Shown here in pieces: positions 2,334 to 58,621 of a stretch of DNA of 64,000 nucleotides. This DNA is from a virus (lineage: Duplodnaviria > Caudoviricetes): positions 1 to 64,000 of the IMG/VR virus record IMGVR_UViG_3300001528_000259; one strand, written 5' to 3'. The position numbers and the translations under genes are program-made. Position 1 is the stretch's first letter. Every line of letters starts with the position of its first letter. The notes under the pieces are model-generated. The model saw nothing but the letters and a program-made list of their open reading frames with translations, had not been told where the DNA came from and did no database searches.

Positions 2334-3086
2334 ATGTCGAAACTGGATAATTTAACAGGACGCAAGTTTGGTTTGTTGACGGTAATTAAAAGAGTTGAGG
2401 ATTATATCAGTCCAAAAGGAGCTCATTCTACACAGTGGTTATGTGAATGCTCATGTGTTGATAAAAATAGAATTATTGCAACATCGAGCAATTTGAAAAA
2501 AGGCAACACTCAATCATGTGGGTGTCTACAAAAAGAAAGAGCAAAACAGGCGTCTCAGGAAAACCGCAAACACAACATTTACGATCTTTCAGGGGATTAT
2601 GGAATAGGATGGACGTCAAATACAAACGAAGAGTTTTATTTTGACTTAGAAGATTACGATAAGATTAAAGATTATTGTTGGTATGTGCGTATTACAAATA
2701 ACACCAAGAGCAATAGGAGGAAATATAAGTGTTTAGAAACATGGAAAAATAATAAGGCGCTCAGATTTACTGATTTAATTGGTTGTAAATGGTACGACCA
2801 TATCAACAGAAATTCATTAGACAATAGAAAAGAAAATTTGAGACCATGCGATCAAAATAGTAACACTAAAAATCATTCTTTGTATTCAACAAATACAAGC
2901 GGTGTTGCGGGGGTATGTTTTTCTCATAACAAATGGTGTTCATATATTTATGTTGATGGTAAACAAATTCGGCTTGGATGTCTTGAAGATAAAACCGAAG
3001 CTATTAAAACAAGATTAATAGCGGAAAAAGAATATTTTGGTGAATTTGCACCACAGCAACATTTATTTGAAGAATATGAAATTTAA
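2334..3086 (+). mobile_element. Free-standing HNH homing endonuclease with AP2-like C-terminus
   Basis: WLCECSC and SCGC, DHINRNSLDNRKENL HNH motif, AEKEYFGEF tail. Confidence 0.85.
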
Positions 3087-3099
3087 GGAGGGGGTTTAT

Positions 3100-3396
3100 A
3101 TGAAAAATTACACATTTGGTTGGAGACTTAAGGAGCAGGGTTGGACAGAAGTTCCAGAAGAGCGGTATACCGATAGACAAATCGATATGAAGAAGTATAT
3201 CGATGTATTGTCTGCGGCAGTTAAACAAGCCAAGTGCGGATGGGACGGTGTCAGATATGCAGTGATGAAGTATACTGATGATTCCATTGAAAAATTTATG
3301 GTGCTTTGGGTGAACGGCGGTGGAAGTCGTTGGATTCCTATTACGGGCAATAGCAAGGGCTGTTGCTTGAGCGTGCTTGGCGAAAATTTGTGGTAA
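3100..3396 (+). CDS. Hypothetical protein
   Basis: RBS plus ORF in a packed gene run. Confidence 0.7.
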   Translation: MKNYTFGWRLKEQGWTEVPEERYTDRQIDMKKYIDVLSAAVKQAKCGWDGVRYAVMKYTDDSIEKFMVLWVNGGGSRWIPITGNSKGCCLSVLGENLW

Positions 3397-3409
3397 GGAG
3401 ATTAATAAT

Positions 3410-3958
3410 ATGACAAAGCAAGAACTTGCAAAAGAAATTAAATCAGCAGTTGAATGGCTCATTAAAGAGGATTGCGGCTGTTCTACAATTAAACTTGATA
3501 ACAGACTTGCCGTCTGTGTTGGATGGTCTGATGGGTATGATGAAAACGATGAGATGGTAATTCACTCAAAAGAAAGTCCGACATTCTGTATCAATGCAGG
3601 AATTAAAGTGTGGACAAGCGACGATTTAAGAACCGACTTTGATTGGATTAACAGTCCGTATCATGAAGATGGCGAAGTATGGGATGATGATCAATCTATT
3701 TCACCAAATGAGGACTATAAAGAACTTGCAGAATTTTATCTGAAAGAGTACCAAACATTGTCCGGAATGACAATCGCAAAAGACGGAAGAATATTGCGAG
3801 AGCATCTGTGGGTGTGCGAACATTGTCTGTACGGTATTGAATCGCACGAAGGTCGTCAGGCAACGCTTGAACATGATGTTGATGAGACAGATGAGGACGA
3901 ATCAAGATGTGACTGGTGCGAAGAAACTGGATTTTGTGAATTATATGAACTGATTTAA
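3410..3958 (+). CDS. Hypothetical protein with C-terminal CxxC...CxxC
   Basis: RBS; CEHC and CDWC motifs. Confidence 0.7.
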   Translation: MTKQELAKEIKSAVEWLIKEDCGCSTIKLDNRLAVCVGWSDGYDENDEMVIHSKESPTFCINAGIKVWTSDDLRTDFDWINSPYHEDGEVWDDDQSISPNEDYKELAEFYLKEYQTLSGMTIAKDGRILREHLWVCEHCLYGIESHEGRQATLEHDVDETDEDESRCDWCEETGFCELYELI

Positions 3959-28327: not shown

Positions 28328-29173
28328 ATGGAGAATATAACTTATAATGAATTTATACAAAATATATTAAATACACGTGGTAGATTTGGATGTGGTGACG
28401 AATATTGTGAACGACATCATATTATACCGAGGTGTTTAGGCGGGATAGATGAAGAAAAAAATTTAATAGACTTGTTTGCAAAGGAACATTTTATTGCACA
28501 TAGATTATTGGCTAATGAAAACCCAGATAATGATAAACTAATATATGCATGGTGGATGATGGCACGTGTCGAAAGACCTGGGCAAAGTCGTTATATTTTA
28601 ACACCAGAAGAGTACGAGGAGGCTAAAATTGCATTTTGTCAAACTCATAAAAGCGCAATGCTTGGCGAAAATAATCCAACTAAACGAGAAGATGTGCGAG
28701 CTAAAATAAGTCAATCATTAATGGGACATCCAGTATCTGATGAGGTAAGGGAGAAATTAAGACTAAAATTTACAGGAATGAAGCTATCTACGGAAAGAAT
28801 TCAACAAATAAAACAATGGATGCAAGACCCAAGCCACTGTTCAAATTATGGAAAACATTTAAGTGAAGATACAAAATCTAAACTAGGTAAACAAATCTAT
28901 CAATGCGATATTAATGGGAGATATATAAGTGTATGGCCTTATGTAACACCAGCATCAAACCATACAGGAGTCGATAAATCTTCAATTATTAAATGTTGTA
29001 GGGGAAAATTAAAAACAGCAGGTAATTTCAAGTGGTATTATTTATATGATCAGATTACTAAAGACGGCTCTATAATACAGGGAGCCATTTCACTTAACTT
29101 AATCACCGAAGTTGAAGCACTTGCCCAACTTCAAGCCCAACTAAATGAATTAAAAGAAGATGATGAAATCTAA
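28328..29173 (+). mobile_element. HNH homing endonuclease with NUMOD3/NUMOD1 domains
   Basis: ERHHIIPRCLGG...NL...EHFIAHRLL. Confidence 0.85.
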
Positions 29174-29175
29174 CT

Positions 29176-29259
29176 TTGTAAATAAACTGTAAACTATATT
29201 ACAACCCACTTGACAAAAGTCAAATTTTAAATATAATAAAAGTACAGTACAAAATGATT
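29176..29259 (+). promoter_or_regulatory. Promoter: tandem box, TTGACA-16-TATAAT, repeated element
   Basis: Box 29176, -35 29210, -10 29232, element 29250. Confidence 0.75.
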
Positions 29260-29303: not shown

Positions 29304-29903
29304 ATGTTTAACGAAGTATTTAATGGTATGTTTGGTAAGGTTGGCAACGGTATGTGCCGTCTGTCAATGAACGGTGGTATCGCGGTTAAGACATCTAATG
29401 GTTACAAAACTTATAATGTTAAGACTGGGAATCTGGTTAACTGTTCTAATTTCGTGTTCCCTGTTGGTGAAGAATTTTTCTTCTGCATCCCAACAAACAA
29501 AGTAGAAATCGGCGATATCATCCTTATTGGAGGTAAGCCAAAGTGTGTTATTAAGTCCGATAAGTCCACAATTACTGTCATCAATTACGAAGACAGTACC
29601 GTTGATACTGTTCTTCCGGAACGGCATATGTTTATGGGAAATACATACTTCTATGGTAAGATTGTTTCTATGTTTGGTAATGATATTTGTGGCAAAGATA
29701 AGAGTGGTATGAACAAGATTATGAAGTATATGATGATGTCTGAAATGTTTAAGAGTAACGGCGGATCTGCGAATAATTCCTTTGGAAACATGTTACCTTT
29801 TATGATGATGAGCAATGGCGGGGCTAGCATGTTTGATAATATGTTCGATGGAATTTTTGATATTGAAGAAGGCAATGATGACACAAAGGAGGACGAAGAG
29901 TAA
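29304..29903 (+). CDS. Hypothetical protein with Met/Gly-rich C-terminus
   Basis: First gene of the vWA/PurA-like operon. Confidence 0.8.
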   Translation: MFNEVFNGMFGKVGNGMCRLSMNGGIAVKTSNGYKTYNVKTGNLVNCSNFVFPVGEEFFFCIPTNKVEIGDIILIGGKPKCVIKSDKSTITVINYEDSTVDTVLPERHMFMGNTYFYGKIVSMFGNDICGKDKSGMNKIMKYMMMSEMFKSNGGSANNSFGNMLPFMMMSNGGASMFDNMFDGIFDIEEGNDDTKEDEE

Positions 29904-30781
29904 TGGGTGGTGGAGCATGGACAAAAGACTCATATAGGAATTATGTGACAACAGCGTATAGTGTAAGCATGAAAGATTTGAGTTTGGATGGTTCTATTTC
30001 ATCTACTTGCACTCTTTCTAATCAGGATATTTTCAAGTCAAAGAGAATGGTTGACGCGCTTAATCCTAAAAACGTTATCCGTGAATGCCTTGATTCTGAG
30101 GAACACCCTAATACAATTCCAGTAATTTTAGCTCTTGATGTAACGGGATCTATGGGTCAGGCGGCGGTTGAGACAGCAAAGAAACTTAATACCATTATGA
30201 CTAACGTTTACTCAAAGGTACCGGATGTGGAGTTTATGATTATGGGCATTGGTGATTTGGCTTATGATAATTATCCTATTCAGGCATCTCAGTTCGAGTC
30301 AGATATTCGTATTGCAGAACAGCTAGATAAGGTATATTTTGAATTTGGTGGTGGCGGAAATAATTTTGAAAGTTATACTGCTGCATGGTATTTTGGATTG
30401 TATCACACAAAACTTGATTGTTATGATAAACGTGGTAAGAAGGGAATTATTATTACAATGGGAGATGAACGTATAAATCCATATCTCCCCCATAATGCTA
30501 TAAATCGTTGTCTTGGTGATACCACACAGGCAGAAATTGAAACCAAAGATTTGTATGCAGAAACCTCAAAGAAATTTGATATTTATCATATTGATGTTGA
30601 ACATGGACATCGTTGGGATGATGGGATTGTTGATTCTTGGAATATTCTTGGCAATAATTTTAAGTCTGCTAATATGAATGATATTTCGGATGTGATTACA
30701 TCAATAATTATGGAGAACACACATACTGAATCTTGCGAAACCAAAACAACAACAAATGAAAATGGAGAAATTGTTTGGTAA
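29903..30781 (+). CDS. von Willebrand factor A domain protein
   Basis: VILALDVTGSMG MIDAS motif, GGGG..ESY, TMGDE. Confidence 0.85.
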   Translation: MGGGAWTKDSYRNYVTTAYSVSMKDLSLDGSISSTCTLSNQDIFKSKRMVDALNPKNVIRECLDSEEHPNTIPVILALDVTGSMGQAAVETAKKLNTIMTNVYSKVPDVEFMIMGIGDLAYDNYPIQASQFESDIRIAEQLDKVYFEFGGGGNNFESYTAAWYFGLYHTKLDCYDKRGKKGIIITMGDERINPYLPHNAINRCLGDTTQAEIETKDLYAETSKKFDIYHIDVEHGHRWDDGIVDSWNILGNNFKSANMNDISDVITSIIMENTHTESCETKTTTNENGEIVW

Positions 30782-30783
30782 AT

Positions 30784-31539
30784 ATGAGTGTTTTAATTGA
30801 TATAACAGGTAACAAATACGGACATTTAACAGTATTGGAGCGCTATATTGATGAGAATAGTAAAGACACGAAATGGAAGTGTATTTGTGATTGCGGAAAC
30901 CCCAATCCTGTTATTGTTTTCGGATATAACTTAAAAAATGGCAATACTACTTCGTGCGGGTGTGTTCATTTGAAGAATGGGCAAAAAACTGGTTCTATTT
31001 ATGGTCCAATTCAAGGTAAGAAAAATAAAAAATATAACAAATATGATTTGACAGGAGAATATGGAATTGGATATACATTAGATGGTAAAGAATTTTATTT
31101 TGACATCGAAGATTACGATATAATCAAAGATTATTGTTGGCATATTAATAAGAATGGGTATGTTGTTAATAAAACAAACAAAAAACCTATCTTGATGCAT
31201 AGATTAGTGATGGGGGTAGATAATATTTCATCAGAATTAGAAGTTGATCATATTCATCATAAAACAAATGATAATCGTAAAAGTGAACTGAGAATTGTAA
31301 CTTCATCTCAAAATAAAATGAATAAGGATAAGCAAGTTAATAATACATCTGGGGTAAGGGGTATATGGTTCAATAAAAATCTTAATCGTTGGGTGGCCGA
31401 TATTGGCGTCGATCATAAAACAATTCATCTTGGTACATATTATACAATTGATGAAGCAGCAAAAGCAAGAAAAGATGCTGAAATAAAATACTTTGGAGAA
31501 TACAGATATCAAGAAGGTGGTGATGAAGCCTATGACTGA
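30784..31539 (+). mobile_element. HNH/AP2 homing endonuclease inserted in the vWA-purA operon
   Basis: WKCICDCG, SCGC, MHRLVM...VDHI...DNRKSEL. Confidence 0.85.
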
Positions 31540-32704
31540 TATTAAAATCGTTATAGGAGCCTAGGTTGGCTTTGGAGACGAGGGAAAGGGCCTGATGGCG
31601 GATTATTTCTGCCACCAGGCAATTCAAAACAATAAAAAATGTTTAAATATTCTTTCCAATGGTGGCTCACAGCGTGGGCATACGGTAACGATGCCAGATG
31701 GTATAAGTCACGTTTTCCACCACTTTGGCAGTGGGACTTTTGCAAATGCAAGCACTTATTTCTCAAAATATTTTATTCTAAATCCAATGAATTTCGTTAG
31801 AGAATGGAACGAACTGAATGAATTAGGATATAATCCTGTTTCGTATTGCAGTCTCTTATGTAAATGGTCTACCCCTTATGATATGTTGGTGAATCAGATT
31901 GTAGAAACGCACCGGGGCGATAAGCGTCATGGGAGCTGTGGTGTTGGAATCTGGGAAACTGAATATCGTTATTCCGTAAAGCCGATGTTACATGATATCT
32001 ATTCATTTAATAATTTTGACACAGAGAAGAAAGTTGATATTCTCGAAGGACTTCGTGACGGATATTATACTGATCGTTTAGAACAACTTGGCGTAAATAA
32101 CATTCCTGATGAATACAGCGAGGTTTTTTATTCTAATGATTTGATTTATCATTTCTTGGCAGATGTGAATTTTATGTGTCGTCATATGATTCCAATATTT
32201 AACGAAAAATGTCTTAATGAATATTTTGATACTGTTGTGTTTGAAAATGGACAGGGATTGCTTCTGGACCAGTCACTTGAATCGTTTTACGGAGATAATC
32301 TTACGCCGAGCAACACTGGATCGATAAACGCTTATAATATGATCTCTAATGTATTTCCGAAAGCAAACGTTGAGTTGTGCTATGTAAGTAGGACATACAT
32401 GACTCGTCATGGTGCTGGTAGATTTGTCACAGAATGTGATAAGTCTAATATCAATAAAGATATGATTGACCAGCATAATGTGACCAATGAATTTCAGGGA
32501 AGTTTAAGATATGGTGAGTTAATAGTTCCACAATTAATTTCTCGCGTCTCTAATGATGCTCAGAAATTTAAAGATGCTAAAGTTTCTATTGCAATGACGC
32601 ATACGAATGAATTTAACAATATTGATTACGATAAACTTTCAAAATTTAATATCTACGCATCGGACGATAGGACAAGAGACAGCATAAAGAGTATCAAGTT
32701 GTAA
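31532..32704 (+). CDS. purA: Adenylosuccinate-synthetase-like protein with an in-frame TAG at codon 11
   Basis: MTDIKIVIGA*VGFGDEGKG, GGSQRGHTV, HGSCGVG, FENGQGLLLD, RTYMTRHGAG. Confidence 0.8.
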
Positions 32705-32783
32705 ATTAATTGTAAACTCCATCATAAGTATCTTGACAAACTAAAGTCTTCGCACTATAATTATGGTACAATACAAAATGATT
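32699..32783 (+). promoter_or_regulatory. Promoter: tandem box, TTGACA-17-TATAAT, repeated element
   Basis: Box 32699, -35 32733, -10 32756, element 32774. Confidence 0.8.
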
Positions 32784-32798
32784 AAGGAGAAAAAAGAA

Positions 32799-33428
32799 AT
32801 GAGTTATTGGACGCATATTACAGGCACGATTATTGTATGCCCTATGGGACGCACACAATCAGAAAAAAGATATATCCTTGAAACTGTATTAGATCATTTG
32901 CCATTAGTTACGGGCTCCGAGGAAGATATGAACGTTCATATTATTCAAAGAGCAGGATATAATTGTTCTTGCTCTTGTGATGAGTTTGGTATGCAAACTA
33001 ATAAGTTGAAAGATAGTTATGGAAACCGTAACCAAAGATGTGGTTGGTTAGACACACAAGATGAATATATTATAGTTGTTGAGGGAGATTTAAGGGACAG
33101 ATTTCTTAGTGACACATACAAAGAATTTGTCAATTGGTTATGTAGGTTGGCCAAGAGGGTTCTTGTACATAATGTATTGGTAAACATTAACAGTAGTGAT
33201 AATGGTAATCGTATTATTTATGAAGATGGGTATTATAATCCTTATGCAGAGATGTTTGAAGAGCCTTCATGGATAAACGACGGCAATAAGCCTAATTGGT
33301 GTGAGTATCTACTCTGGGATAGAGCTAAAGATAGTGATATGCCAATGATGTTGATGTATAAATATATTGAAGATAAAGAAAACGACGAAGAGGTAAAACG
33401 CAGACTACGTTATGAAGAGGGAGAGTAA
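32799..33428 (+). CDS. Hypothetical phage protein
   Basis: AGGAG RBS; TGSE and GDLRDR motifs. Confidence 0.75.
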   Translation: MSYWTHITGTIIVCPMGRTQSEKRYILETVLDHLPLVTGSEEDMNVHIIQRAGYNCSCSCDEFGMQTNKLKDSYGNRNQRCGWLDTQDEYIIVVEGDLRDRFLSDTYKEFVNWLCRLAKRVLVHNVLVNINSSDNGNRIIYEDGYYNPYAEMFEEPSWINDGNKPNWCEYLLWDRAKDSDMPMMLMYKYIEDKENDEEVKRRLRYEEGE

Positions 33429-34330
33429 TGATGAAAGATACACAAGGAAAACTCACTTATGACGAATTTATCAATAGCATTCTTAAAACTCGCGGACGTT
33501 TTGCTTGTGGCGAGGAATACCACGAAAGACATCATATTAAGCCTAAGTGTATTGGTGGCTTAGACGAAGAAGATAACTTGATTGATCTGTTTGCAAGGGA
33601 ACATTTTGAAGCGCATCGATTGTTAGCGTTGGAGAATCCAGATAACACGAAATTAGTGTATGCCTGGTATGTTATTACACATTGTAAAAACCAATATCAA
33701 GAAAGATATATGGCCAGTGCAGAAGAATATGACGAAGCAAAGGAAGCGTGGAGCAAACAATACAGCGAATCAATACGTGGTGAAAAACATTGGGATTGTT
33801 CTGGTGCAAATAATCCTAATTATGGGAAGCCAAGATCCGAAGAAACTAAGAAAAAAATTAGTCGGGCTAACACTGGCAAACCAAGCGCAATGAAAGGAAA
33901 ACATCATTCAGAAAATACACGCAAAAATATTAGTATAAAAGCCAAAGAAAGATTAAAAAACAAAGAAAATCATCCGTGGTTTGGTAGAAATCATTCAGAA
34001 GAATCAAAAAAACTACTAAGTGAATTACAAAAAGAAAGATTAAAAAATCCAGAAAACCATCCGATGTATGGCAAACATCTTGCGGAGGAAACAAGGAATA
34101 AATTGCGTGAAAAAGCTAAAGAACGATATAAAGATCCTGCAAATCATCCAAACGCTCGTCGTGTTGTTCGTTTGTCTGATTTGAAAATTTATGGTTATTT
34201 AATGCAAGCGGCACAAGATAATAATATTAGTAGATATACCATGAGAAGATACTGCAAACAACATAAAGATTTTATGTATTATGATGAGTATTTGATTCAA
34301 CAAAATGATTTAAAGGAGGGTGATCAATGA
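33428..34330 (+). mobile_element. HNH homing endonuclease with NUMOD3 repeats
   Basis: ERHHIKPKCIGG...EHFEAHRLL; HSEE..K repeats; paralog of 28328..29173. Confidence 0.85.
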
Positions 34331-34695: not shown

Positions 34696-34728
34696 TTAAC
34701 AATACGAAATGATTAAGGAGAGAAGGAT

Positions 34729-43424: not shown

Positions 43425-43505
43425 TTGTAAATAAATTGTAAACAAGCTCCGAAGTGCCTTGACAAACCAGCGTTTCGGAGCTATTATATACACGACAAAA
43501 TGATT
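43425..43505 (+). promoter_or_regulatory. Promoter: tandem box, TTGACA-17-TATTAT, repeated element
   Basis: Box 43425, -35 43459, -10 43482, element 43496. Confidence 0.75.
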
Positions 43506-43520
43506 ATATAAGGAGTAAGC

Positions 43521-50559: not shown

Positions 50560-50648
50560 GCCGCTGTGGTGGAATTGGCAGACACCTGGGACTTAAAATC
50601 CCATGTTCAGAGATGAGCGTACCGGTTCGATCCCGGTCAGCGGCACCA
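50560..50648 (+). tRNA. tRNA-Leu(TAA)
   Basis: Cloverleaf with long variable arm and encoded CCA. Confidence 0.9.
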
Positions 50649-50702
50649 TCTGTGGAAATCAAGCGTGTCCACCATCGGGCGCCCCGTAAAAGCCGGATAT
50701 AC

Positions 50703-50792
50703 GGAGAGTTAAGCATAGTTGGTACTGCGGCGGATTGCCAATTCGTTCCTCGTTCATTCGAGGCAGAGGTTCGACCCCTTTCACCTATGCCA
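50703..50792 (+). tRNA. Atypical or pseudo tRNA: Tyr-like class II body, GCC anticodon, mispaired acceptor stem
   Basis: GCGGA-TTGCCAA-TTCGT arm, CCTCG/CGAGG variable arm, TTCGA loop, CCA end. Confidence 0.55.
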
Positions 50793-50799
50793 AATGCCC

Positions 50800-51110
50800 A
50801 GTTGAGATAACATACTACGGCTGTGAGTGACGGTCGGGATCCAAGGTGCAGATAAGTTCTGTGGGCGTAAAAGAAATAAGAGGTTAGATTGCATTACACA
50901 ATCGAAGTTAGCCTTGAAACAGGCAGGACATAGCCTCAAATAAATCCTTGGTGAGCTAAGATGGGAAACACTAATCCCCCTACTATTATAAAAGCTGAAA
51001 AGACCACGATAAACCATACGAAAGGTTTGTCCTCGTAGATGGAATTGTGATTGAATAGCAATCTTGCGTAAAGGCAAAGGGTGAGGCTGATAGTGGAGTC
51101 ACTTATGTAA
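50800..51110 (+). ncRNA. Candidate large structured ncRNA
   Basis: Long-range helices and several hairpins between tRNAs; no credible ORF. Confidence 0.55.
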
Positions 51111-51117
51111 TATTTAT

Positions 51118-51193
51118 GCGGATGTAGCTCAGTTGGTAGAGCACACGATTTTTAATCGTGGAGTCTGGAGTTCAAACCTCCACATCCGCACCA
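51118..51193 (+). tRNA. tRNA-Lys(TTT)
   Basis: Canonical cloverleaf, CCA. Confidence 0.92.
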
Positions 51194-51200
51194 TCTATAT

Positions 51201-51276
51201 TGCCTGTTAGCCAAGAGGTAAGGCACCAGACTTTGACTCTGGTATTACGGTAGTTCGAATCTACCACAGGCAGCCA
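51201..51276 (+). tRNA. tRNA-Gln(TTG)
   Basis: Canonical cloverleaf, CCA. Confidence 0.92.
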
Positions 51277-51277
51277 T

Positions 51278-51439
51278 TGCACAGGAAATATGTATAGCTT
51301 CGTGACAAACTTATACGAGAATACGCCGTTCAGAGTATAGCTCCTCTGCTGAAACGAGAAAGAATTAGTCCCGCTGAAGGTAGTATATAGCAAAGCGCGA
51401 ATGTGGGTGTTATACATCACCCGGTTTTCTGTGCATCCA
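51278..51439 (+). ncRNA. Candidate 162-nt ncRNA with an acceptor-like stem ending in NCCA
   Basis: TGCACAGGAAA/TTTTCTGTGCA followed by TCCA. Confidence 0.5.
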
Positions 51440-51444
51440 AATAT

Positions 51445-51521
51445 GCGCACGTAGCCCAGAGGCAGGAGGCAGATGACTCAAAATCATCACAGGGAATGTT
51501 CGAATCATTTCGTGCGTACCA
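51445..51521 (+). tRNA. tRNA-Leu(CAA) with short variable loop
   Basis: GATGA-CTCAAAA-TCATC arm, TTCGAAT loop, ACCA end. Confidence 0.8.
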
Positions 51522-51980: not shown

Positions 51981-52034
51981 TTGACACATAACACACTTCT
52001 TGATATAATAAGTTTGTAACAATACAAAATGATT
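51981..52034 (+). promoter_or_regulatory. SigA promoter plus repeated element
   Basis: TTGACA 51981, 17 nt spacer, TATAAT 52004; element 52025. Confidence 0.8.
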
Positions 52035-52051
52035 AAGGAGTGTGTTTTTCA

Positions 52052-52846: not shown

Positions 52847-52929
52847 TTGTAAACAAATTGTAAATACCCCCATAAGTGCATTGACAATTAAGTAGTTATG
52901 CTATATAATGTATACACAACAAAATGATT
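52847..52929 (+). promoter_or_regulatory. Promoter: tandem box, TTGACA-17-TATAAT, repeated element
   Basis: Box 52847, -35 52881, -10 52904, element 52920. Confidence 0.8.
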
Positions 52930-52943
52930 AAGGGGGTCTTCAA

Positions 52944-58587: not shown

Positions 58588-58621
58588 AACAATACAAAAT
58601 GATTAAAAGGAGAACAAAATT

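Follow-up and report, generated by a model that had tools for sequence, protein, structure and literature searches.

Endonuclease-linked gaps and possible translational bypassing

Among cases of programmed translational bypassing, bacteriophage T4 gene 60 has for many years been the main one studied in depth, and its homologues are, to our knowledge, all one 50-nucleotide (nt) element residing in topoisomerase genes. Here we describe a locus in the first 64 kb (positions 1 to 64,000, hereafter the window) of a 138.7-kb phage contig from IMG/VR (IMGVR_UViG_3300001528_000259; CheckV completeness 83%, G+C 36%), in which a PurA-like gene lies immediately behind a gene for an HNH homing endonuclease and is interrupted, ten codons after its start, by the six bases TAGGTT. 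Sister loci carry other short inserts at the same codon, each of which opens with a stop codon. Judged from sequence, the interruption is most aptly placed in a hitherto undescribed family of micro-gaps linked to an endonuclease; no description of a PurA-like gap family was found in the papers searched.

In T4, MobA and the 50-nt gap of gene 60 constitute one mobile cassette, in which the gap protects its carrier from nicking (10.1101/2022.08.31.505936; 10.1101/2024.12.09.627546). A conserved stop codon opens the gap, a stem-loop on its 5′ side is a driver of bypassing, and pairing of the exiting mRNA has been proposed to push the ribosome forward (10.1101/2022.08.31.505936; 10.1101/2024.12.09.627546). 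The mobA/gene 60 bypass cassette is attributed to Bonocora et al. 2011, as cited in a 2016 review (PMC5009743), and is treated by Manning and Atkins (10.1101/2022.08.31.505936). The window locus resembles this system in several ways: its HNH gene sits immediately upstream of the interrupted gene and is mobile relative to its kin; a non-coding insert lies a few tens of nt downstream, within a highly conserved coding stretch, and occurs only in endonuclease-bearing alleles; and the proposed take-off codon is directly followed by a stop (in the window TAG; in the sisters TGA, TAG, or TAA), with a conserved hairpin on its 5′ side. The differences are that the gap measures 4 to 6 nt rather than 50 nt and interrupts a PurA-like rather than a topoisomerase gene, that the PurA-like gene is not split into two open reading frames (ORFs), and that homology to the mobA element was not observed. 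The 10-codon leader here also leaves no possibility of a nascent-peptide signal, and of the sister types only one (locus L156) has take-off and landing codons that match, whereas those of the window do not. Both protection from cutting and bypass are proposed for this locus from sequence and analogy.

A second point of comparison is the synthetic stop-hop, with +5 and +6 shifts in E. coli (Weiss et al. 1987, as summarised in PMC5009743). The 2016 review states that synthetic constructs were the only setting in which in-frame stop-hopping had been demonstrated, no natural example being known (PMC5009743). The proposal made here is similar, in that peptidyl-tRNA would quit its codon at a stop in the aminoacyl (A) site and re-pair a few nt further on, nine nt yielding one residue, and the arrangement in L156 (GCU, UAG, GCC) fits this exactly. 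The synthetic constructs, however, had engineered matched codons and low efficiency, and the landing triplet in the window is near-cognate. The +1 frameshift in prfB (encoding RF2) shares with the window a Shine-Dalgarno-like element close 5′ of the codon in the peptidyl (P) site and a stop in the A site, and sister gaps of 4 nt could be read in this way. In the window, by contrast, the gap is 6 nt and in frame, and a +1 shift would lead to a stop after ten codons. The mitochondrial byp elements of Magnusiomyces capitatus are likewise many short mobile inserts in essential coding sequences that are bypassed in translation; as described in a published account, they differ in being 27–55 nt long, mitochondrial, spread in the manner of GC clusters, and without a linked endonuclease gene (10.1101/2022.08.31.505936).

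A stop codon ahead of the P-loop of a PurA-like gene

The predicted product of the interrupted gene belongs to the adenylosuccinate synthetase superfamily. It matches Pfam PF00709 (adenylosuccinate synthetase) at 1.5e-22 and also phrog_1211; its nearest solved relatives are bacterial PurA, and alignment to E. coli PurA shows that the GDEGKG loop and the histidine of GHT are retained. All 12 matches in the PDB (best E-value ~1e-9) were deposited as adenylosuccinate synthetase and none is named PurZ, the sole pointer to PurZ being the PHROG label of phrog_1211. In a large subgroup of the PurA-like family, which includes L101, L105, L107, and L108 along with numerous further IMG/VR loci, the P-loop reads GDCGKG instead of GDEGKG.

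A preliminary description of this locus had read the gene from ATG 31532 as MTDIKIVIGA, followed by TAG (31562–31564), GTT, and GFGDEGKG, and then as open to 32704, and this reading was confirmed. The spacing within G-x-x-x-GD[EC]GKG is invariant in all 167 homologues fetched from a collection of 5.8 billion proteins, in 80 IMG/VR loci, and in bacterial PurA in the PDB, and the window has two codons more than this family spacing before GDEGKG. Removal of the six bases restores the usual spacing, as had also been claimed, and measured against the same homologues, loci, and structures the claim stands, with Gly then occupying the Asn position. Asn is found in ~99% of homologues and loci at the position that the stop takes in the window. 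The two closest proteins, which are 91% and 90% identical, are each exactly two residues shorter than a read-through product of the window would be. In DNA alignment with relatives, the Asn codon and adjoining bases have been swapped for new sequence, 3–5 nt giving way to 9–11 nt with a net gain of 6 nt. No second PurA-like copy was found within the contig, and a search for an ectopic donor of the inserted bases returned chance k-mers only.

Stop-first gaps at the same codon in sister loci

A gap that opens with a stop lies directly after the same codon in 6 of the 7 lineages that bear the HNH gene, versus none of 42 distinct HNH-free alleles (Fisher 5e-7). Every gap begins with TGA, TAG, or TAA. 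Gaps of +4 nt consist of TGA plus A or G in twelve alleles from five sublineages (L143–145, L147–148, L149–152, L153–155) and of TAG plus C in L158/L159. The +5 gaps are TAG plus CC in L156 and TAG plus CT in L157, and the +6 gaps are TAA plus CGC in L142 and TAG plus GTT in the window. The seventh HNH-bearing lineage, L140/L141, is gapless and has GSGF replacing GANF. Excision of the gap restores the family spacing in every case, and restores the consensus residues in all but the window, where the resulting GAGF resembles the GSGF of L140, which has no gap. In L156, GCU precedes the stop and GCC closes the gap; both specify Ala, which is the classic layout of a matched stop-hop; no other gap has such a pair, and the landing triplet of the window, GUU, is unmatched to its GCC take-off codon. 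Palindromes occur at two of the gaps, CCTAGG in the window and GTTAAC in L142, and the one at the window gap is the single occurrence of CCTAGG in the 138.7-kb contig. The tetranucleotide CTAG is strongly depleted contig-wide, with 80 seen versus ~458 expected from base composition.

The preliminary description had proposed aligning homologues to look for a conserved insert; the exact TAGGTT was seen only in the present contig, but stop-first gaps at the same codon recur in the sisters. The stop has the look of a recoding site linked to the HNH gene, not of a chance lesion: the sisters' stop-first gaps, 4, 5, and 6 nt long, all fall at this codon, their ORFs are intact, and their P-loop is conserved in protein sequence.

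In every gap-bearing contig among L142–L159, automatic gene calls place the PurA-like start at a Met after the P-loop, giving proteins of 271–358 amino acids (aa). The P-loop is consequently missing from the database proteins, with ~30–55 codons truncated in every contig examined.

The HNH gene and the probable extent of its cassette

The HNH gene is placed precisely between a gene for a 292-aa protein and the PurA-like gene, as mapped against the nearest relatives that lack it (L010–L012), and contigs of a ~90% identical relative in public sequencing runs skip it as well. A search with the HNH protein returned homologues ~60% identical (50–68% across lineages), and in L140–L145 and L147–L159 these occupy the same junction between a homologue of the 292-aa gene and a PurA-like gene. 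This placement covers every HNH homologue on a contig with enough flanking sequence, with the sole exception of L146, and among IMG/VR loci with HNH homologues of less than 47% identity none adjoins a PurA-like gene. The endonuclease/PurA junction pattern of the window itself had no match in viral or metagenome contig collections.

HNH genes of one sublineage show 100% identity even where the PurA-like backgrounds differ by 8–15% at the protein level. L143 and L144 share an identical tract of 1.1 kb, comprising the HNH gene, the gap, and ~285 nt beyond, within diverged flanks. This is the signature of homing with co-conversion, and it means that endonuclease and gap move together, as a single unit. 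In locus coordinates, the two sequences show no differences over 2456–3581, 85 differences in the 300 nt of 3582–3882, and near identity thereafter, a sharp recombination mosaic. The cassette in the window probably extends over the HNH gene (30784–31539) and ~35 nt at the 5′ end of the PurA-like gene, TAGGTT included. A co-conversion tract in the window could not be recognized from excess local divergence, which was indistinguishable from the gene-wide synonymous divergence (pS 0.39).

Five loci (L124, L126, L134, L135, and L137, at ~1415–2488 in each) have an unrelated 357-aa endonuclease-like gene at the same junction, with a DUF4379 treble-clef domain and matches to phrog_9084 and phrog_7140, which marks the junction as a hot spot. 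The P-loop region in all five is intact and gapless.

The HNH homologues in L146, L158 (2001–2753), and L159 (518–1270) match the database protein only when TAG is read as Gln, which indicates that these contigs derive from TAG-recoded phages. The TAG that opens the L158/L159 gap may not be a stop late in infection.

On the strength of these comparisons, we favor the view that the window contains a mobile cassette of HNH endonuclease and gap like that of T4 mobA/gene 60 and that ribosomes cross the gap by a short hop, a view we consider somewhat better than evenly supported. The preliminary description had listed a hop and a scar linked to the HNH gene as alternatives; the link to the HNH gene is supported, but scar and hop now appear to be two sides of one thing, as they are in T4 mobA/gene 60.

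Selection on the interrupted gene

All 17 complete gap alleles have intact ORFs of 352–378 aa (counted from the Phe/Trp or resume codon to the natural stop), and none has a secondary lesion. Across the five +4 sublineages described above, the HNH proteins are 70–87% identical and the PurA-like proteins 57–78% identical; the synonymous substitution rate (dS) is saturated, and the ratio of nonsynonymous to synonymous rates (dN/dS) is 0.07–0.18. The nine codons after the gap, which include the P-loop, have 1, 1, and 9 variable sites at the first, second, and third codon positions, that is, all nine third positions and two others, versus 2, 0, and 1 in the ten codons before the gap (Fisher 1e-4). 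P-loop codons within 27 nt of the gap are inside the reach of the ~285-nt conversion tracts, yet they diverge only synonymously. Nucleotide conservation peaks between −15 and +33 around the start codon, with pairwise identities of 0.91–0.96 versus 0.5–0.7 in the flanks.

For the window gene compared with L010, dN/dS is 0.09, and derived amino-acid changes are symmetric, 20 in the window versus 17 in the relative. No sign was found of relaxed downstream selection, which the preliminary description had named among its refuting conditions, or of a decaying pseudogene, and 379 codons contain no further stop or frameshift. Taken by themselves, the window values of dN/dS and the symmetric changes fit either a recent lesion or continued function.

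A rival reading is a selfish null allele, in which the gap is an immunity scar at the endonuclease target that has killed the PurA-like gene, homing outruns the fitness cost, and the ORFs look healthy through recent conversion. The identical HNH genes in diverged PurA-like backgrounds and the tract shared by L143 and L144 show that homing is recent and frequent. The window allele, moreover, is a singleton without a matched landing codon, in a gene 91% identical to endonuclease-free relatives. A dead gene would not, however, predict that all six gap variants open with a stop, for which we estimate a chance of ~7% per random insert at present base composition, nor that excising each gap restores the consensus, nor the conserved gap-specific hairpin described below. 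P-loop codons so close to the gap vary only at third positions even though the HNH proteins have diverged by 13–30%, and secondary lesions are present in 0 of the 17 complete alleles. We regard a null allele as unlikely.

A conserved hairpin upstream of the gap

In an alignment of ten distinct gap-bearing sequences, a 7-bp hairpin whose 5′ arm includes the start codon and whose 3′ arm, in codons 7–9, stops 1 nt short of the last codon read has standard pairs in 70 of 70 cells, and one of its pairs occurs as U-A, C-G, and G-C, a compensatory covariation; control positions slid along the same alignment are only 31–61% paired. This hairpin is the minimum-energy fold in each gap allele, with z-scores of −3.0 to −5.6, and all seven pairs are formed in 10 of 10 gap alleles versus none of 31 distinct gapless alleles (Fisher 9e-10). 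No conserved downstream or take-off structure was found among the sister gaps.

The preliminary description had pointed to a different structure, a 6-bp stem with TAGGTT as its loop. This stem does fold in isolation (−7.3 kcal/mol), but its z-scores of −1.35 (27 nt) and −2.38 (61 nt) only marginally beat shuffled sequence, and with 86 nt of context the minimum-energy fold is instead the upstream hairpin, which takes two bases of the TAGGTT-loop stem. The stem is specific to the window and not conserved, intact relatives form comparable hairpins in its place, and the covariation expected of it is found instead in the upstream 7-bp hairpin.

A possible hop over the stop

By analogy with T4, the gap would disrupt the endonuclease target in conserved DNA coding for Ala-Asn-Phe-Gly and the P-loop, and would thereby protect the carrier genome. 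A ribosome translating the interrupted gene would reach GCC with a 10-residue peptidyl-tRNA-Ala and have UAG in its A site, where slow termination would lead to a stall. A forward move of 6 nt would place GUU in the P site, with one Watson-Crick pair and two G-U pairs, and decoding would restart at GGC to give a product reading ...VIGAGFGDEGKG..., with the normal family spacing. Candidate drivers of this movement are the upstream hairpin re-forming behind the ribosome, the AGGAG beside the P-site codon, or both, and the efficiency of the hop may be low. The Gly codon within AGGAG is GGA in all 7 endonuclease-bearing lineages versus 16 of 42 others.

We give roughly even weight, for and against, to the fuller proposal that the sister loci form a natural family of 4–6 nt hops over a stop, in which the gap shields the cassette's own P-loop target and the hairpin drives or tunes the hop, the window being a natural in-frame stop-hop. 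Confirmation would make the sister loci a second endonuclease-plus-gap system, independent of that of T4. Its graded natural series (4, 5, and 6 nt; all three stops; matched and unmatched landing triplets) would amount to a ready-made mutational analysis of the forward slide, and a natural in-frame stop-hop would become directly testable.

Other routes around the stop were considered. A +1 or −1 frameshift at GCC-TAG in the window is ruled out by early stops, which in the +1 frame come after ten codons; the resumed ORF is in frame 0 and not in the +1 frame that a prfB-type frameshift would need, which is found only in the +4 sisters. A hop from GGA 31556 to GGA 31574 would be in frame, but the protein would lose four conserved residues, and no stop follows GGA 31556. 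Landing on the cognate GCU 31569 would put the ribosome out of frame.

Several points weigh against the hop. The landing triplet GUU is only near-cognate, the sole downstream cognate Ala codon being GCU 31569, which is 10 nt on and out of frame; the hop from GCC over UAG onto GUU put forward in the preliminary description gains comparative support from the sisters, with a matched pair in L156, but GUU itself is not cognate for the Ala tRNA. A 10-residue nascent peptide cannot give a tunnel signal like that of gene 60, and short peptidyl-tRNAs are prone to drop-off. The 3′ arm of the hairpin is still within the ribosome at take-off, which makes its role as a driver conjecture; by sequestering the start codon, the hairpin could control initiation instead. 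The +4 sisters, which are the commonest type, likewise have no landing triplet that matches and may be read by a +1 frameshift, so the gaps may not share one mechanism. The exact TAGGTT allele occurs in no other sequence searched, viral contigs yielding only unrelated chance matches and metagenome contigs none. Repeated homing into fresh intact genes could likewise keep downstream ORFs looking healthy, and recent homing of the HNH gene and gap as a unit weakens the argument from selection. Lastly, the window variant is in frame, and for that reason its sequence cannot separate a hop from readthrough of UAG.

In the case of readthrough, a near-cognate or suppressor tRNA would decode the TAG, and the full-length protein would be two residues longer ahead of the P-loop (GA-x-V-GF). 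The six tRNAs encoded on the contig include tRNA-Gln(UUG), tRNA-Lys(UUU), and tRNA-Leu(CAA, UAA), each one mismatch from reading UAG. TAG is also the rarest stop, terminating 7 of 126 long ORFs (TAA 81, TGA 38), and the +4 sisters, if read by a +1 frameshift, would similarly gain an extra residue here. Those seven ORFs, on the other hand, show that TAG is still a terminator in this contig, and a suppressor tRNA with a CUA anticodon was not found by ARAGORN over the whole 138.7-kb contig (83% complete) or by Rfam on the tRNA cluster and its tRNA-like elements. The spacing before GDEGKG is constant in the 167 homologues, the 80 loci, and the PurA structures, and readthrough could not rescue the +4 and +5 sister gaps. 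Readthrough seems to us improbable. Genome-wide reassignment of TAG is ruled out, since translation table 11 suits all other genes; the window genes are tightly packed on the + strand and translate well under this table, and reading TAG as Gln convincingly altered no other window gene.

It is also conceivable, though very unlikely, that the functional product is truncated, with termination at TAG or at the +1-frame TGA (closing a short ORF from TTG 31566) followed by restart at ATG 31595, to yield a 369-aa protein with a different role, devoid of strand 1 and the P-loop. ATG 31595 is the next in-frame ATG and does open such an ORF, the +1-frame TGA (31593–31595) overlaps it in the layout of coupled genes, and gene callers pick such starts in sister contigs. 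This ATG falls after the P-loop, however, and the preliminary description was correct that a start there would lose the GDEGKG loop, and with it the catalytic Asp and Lys. P-loop codons that were not translated would drift, yet every gap allele conserves the amino acids that they encode, and the TGA/ATG overlap occurs in intact relatives as well and is probably incidental. An assembly or sequencing artefact, or a minor defective variant caught in the metagenome consensus, is scarcely credible: the contig is metagenome-assembled, and the only runs located (four public DNA sequencing runs, with no RNA run listed) hold only the ~90% identical endonuclease-free relative, but replacement of 3–5 nt by 9–11 nt of new sequence is atypical for read error, and analogous gaps stand at the same codon in independent assemblies from several samples.

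Features of the locus and its surroundings

Table 1. Features at the HNH/PurA-like junction, in window coordinates.
Feature	Coordinates	Strand	Remarks
Gene for 292-aa protein (phrog_2971)	29903–30781	+	Its stop and the PurA-like start codon overlap in relatives without the endonuclease gene
Free-standing HNH-AP2 homing endonuclease gene, ~750 nt	30784–31539	+	PHROG HNH families 1e-41, Pfam AP2 and HNH_3; stop lies 5 nt inside the PurA-like ORF
Putative purine-rich ribosome-binding site for the PurA-like start	31513–31522	+	Assigned from sequence; inside a block conserved among sister cassettes
Conserved 7-bp hairpin, 5′ arm	31529–31535	+	Includes the start codon (31532–31534)
Ten-codon leader MTDIKIVIGA	31532–31561	+	ATG 31532; last codon GCC 31559–31561, the proposed take-off codon
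Conserved 7-bp hairpin, 3′ arm	31551–31557	+	Ends 1 nt before the last codon read; z-score in the window −4.2
Shine-Dalgarno-like AGGAG	31555–31559	+	Abuts the take-off codon, 5 nt before GTT; overlaps the hairpin arm, role uncertain
Hairpin with TAGGTT loop	31556–31573	+	Stem 31556–31561/31568–31573, loop 31562–31567; competes with the conserved hairpin for 31556–31557
Six-base coding gap, TAG + GTT	31562–31567	+	TAG 31562–31564; absent from all homologues; sister gaps at the same codon
Resumed PurA-like ORF, GFGDEGKG...	31568–32704	+	No later stop or frameshift; Pfam PF00709, phrog_1211

Two further homing-endonuclease genes lie within 3 kb of the PurA-like gene, at 28328–29173 and 33428–34330 (phrog_655; the second with NUMOD3 motifs).

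The tRNA cluster at 50560–51521 contains Leu-UAA, Lys-UUU, Gln-UUG, and Leu-CAA. Odd tRNA-like stretches occur within it at 50712–50781 and 51278–51439, with no CUA anticodon visible in either; one is degenerate and scores 25 bits, below the Rfam threshold, and the other is a structured stretch of 160 nt that ends in CCA.

An intergenic element of ~85 nt recurs across the window, in copies 73–92% identical at 32699–32789, 29176–29259, 43425–43506, 52847–52933, 52008–52040, 58589–58618, and 34699–34724, and may be a shared promoter or terminator module.

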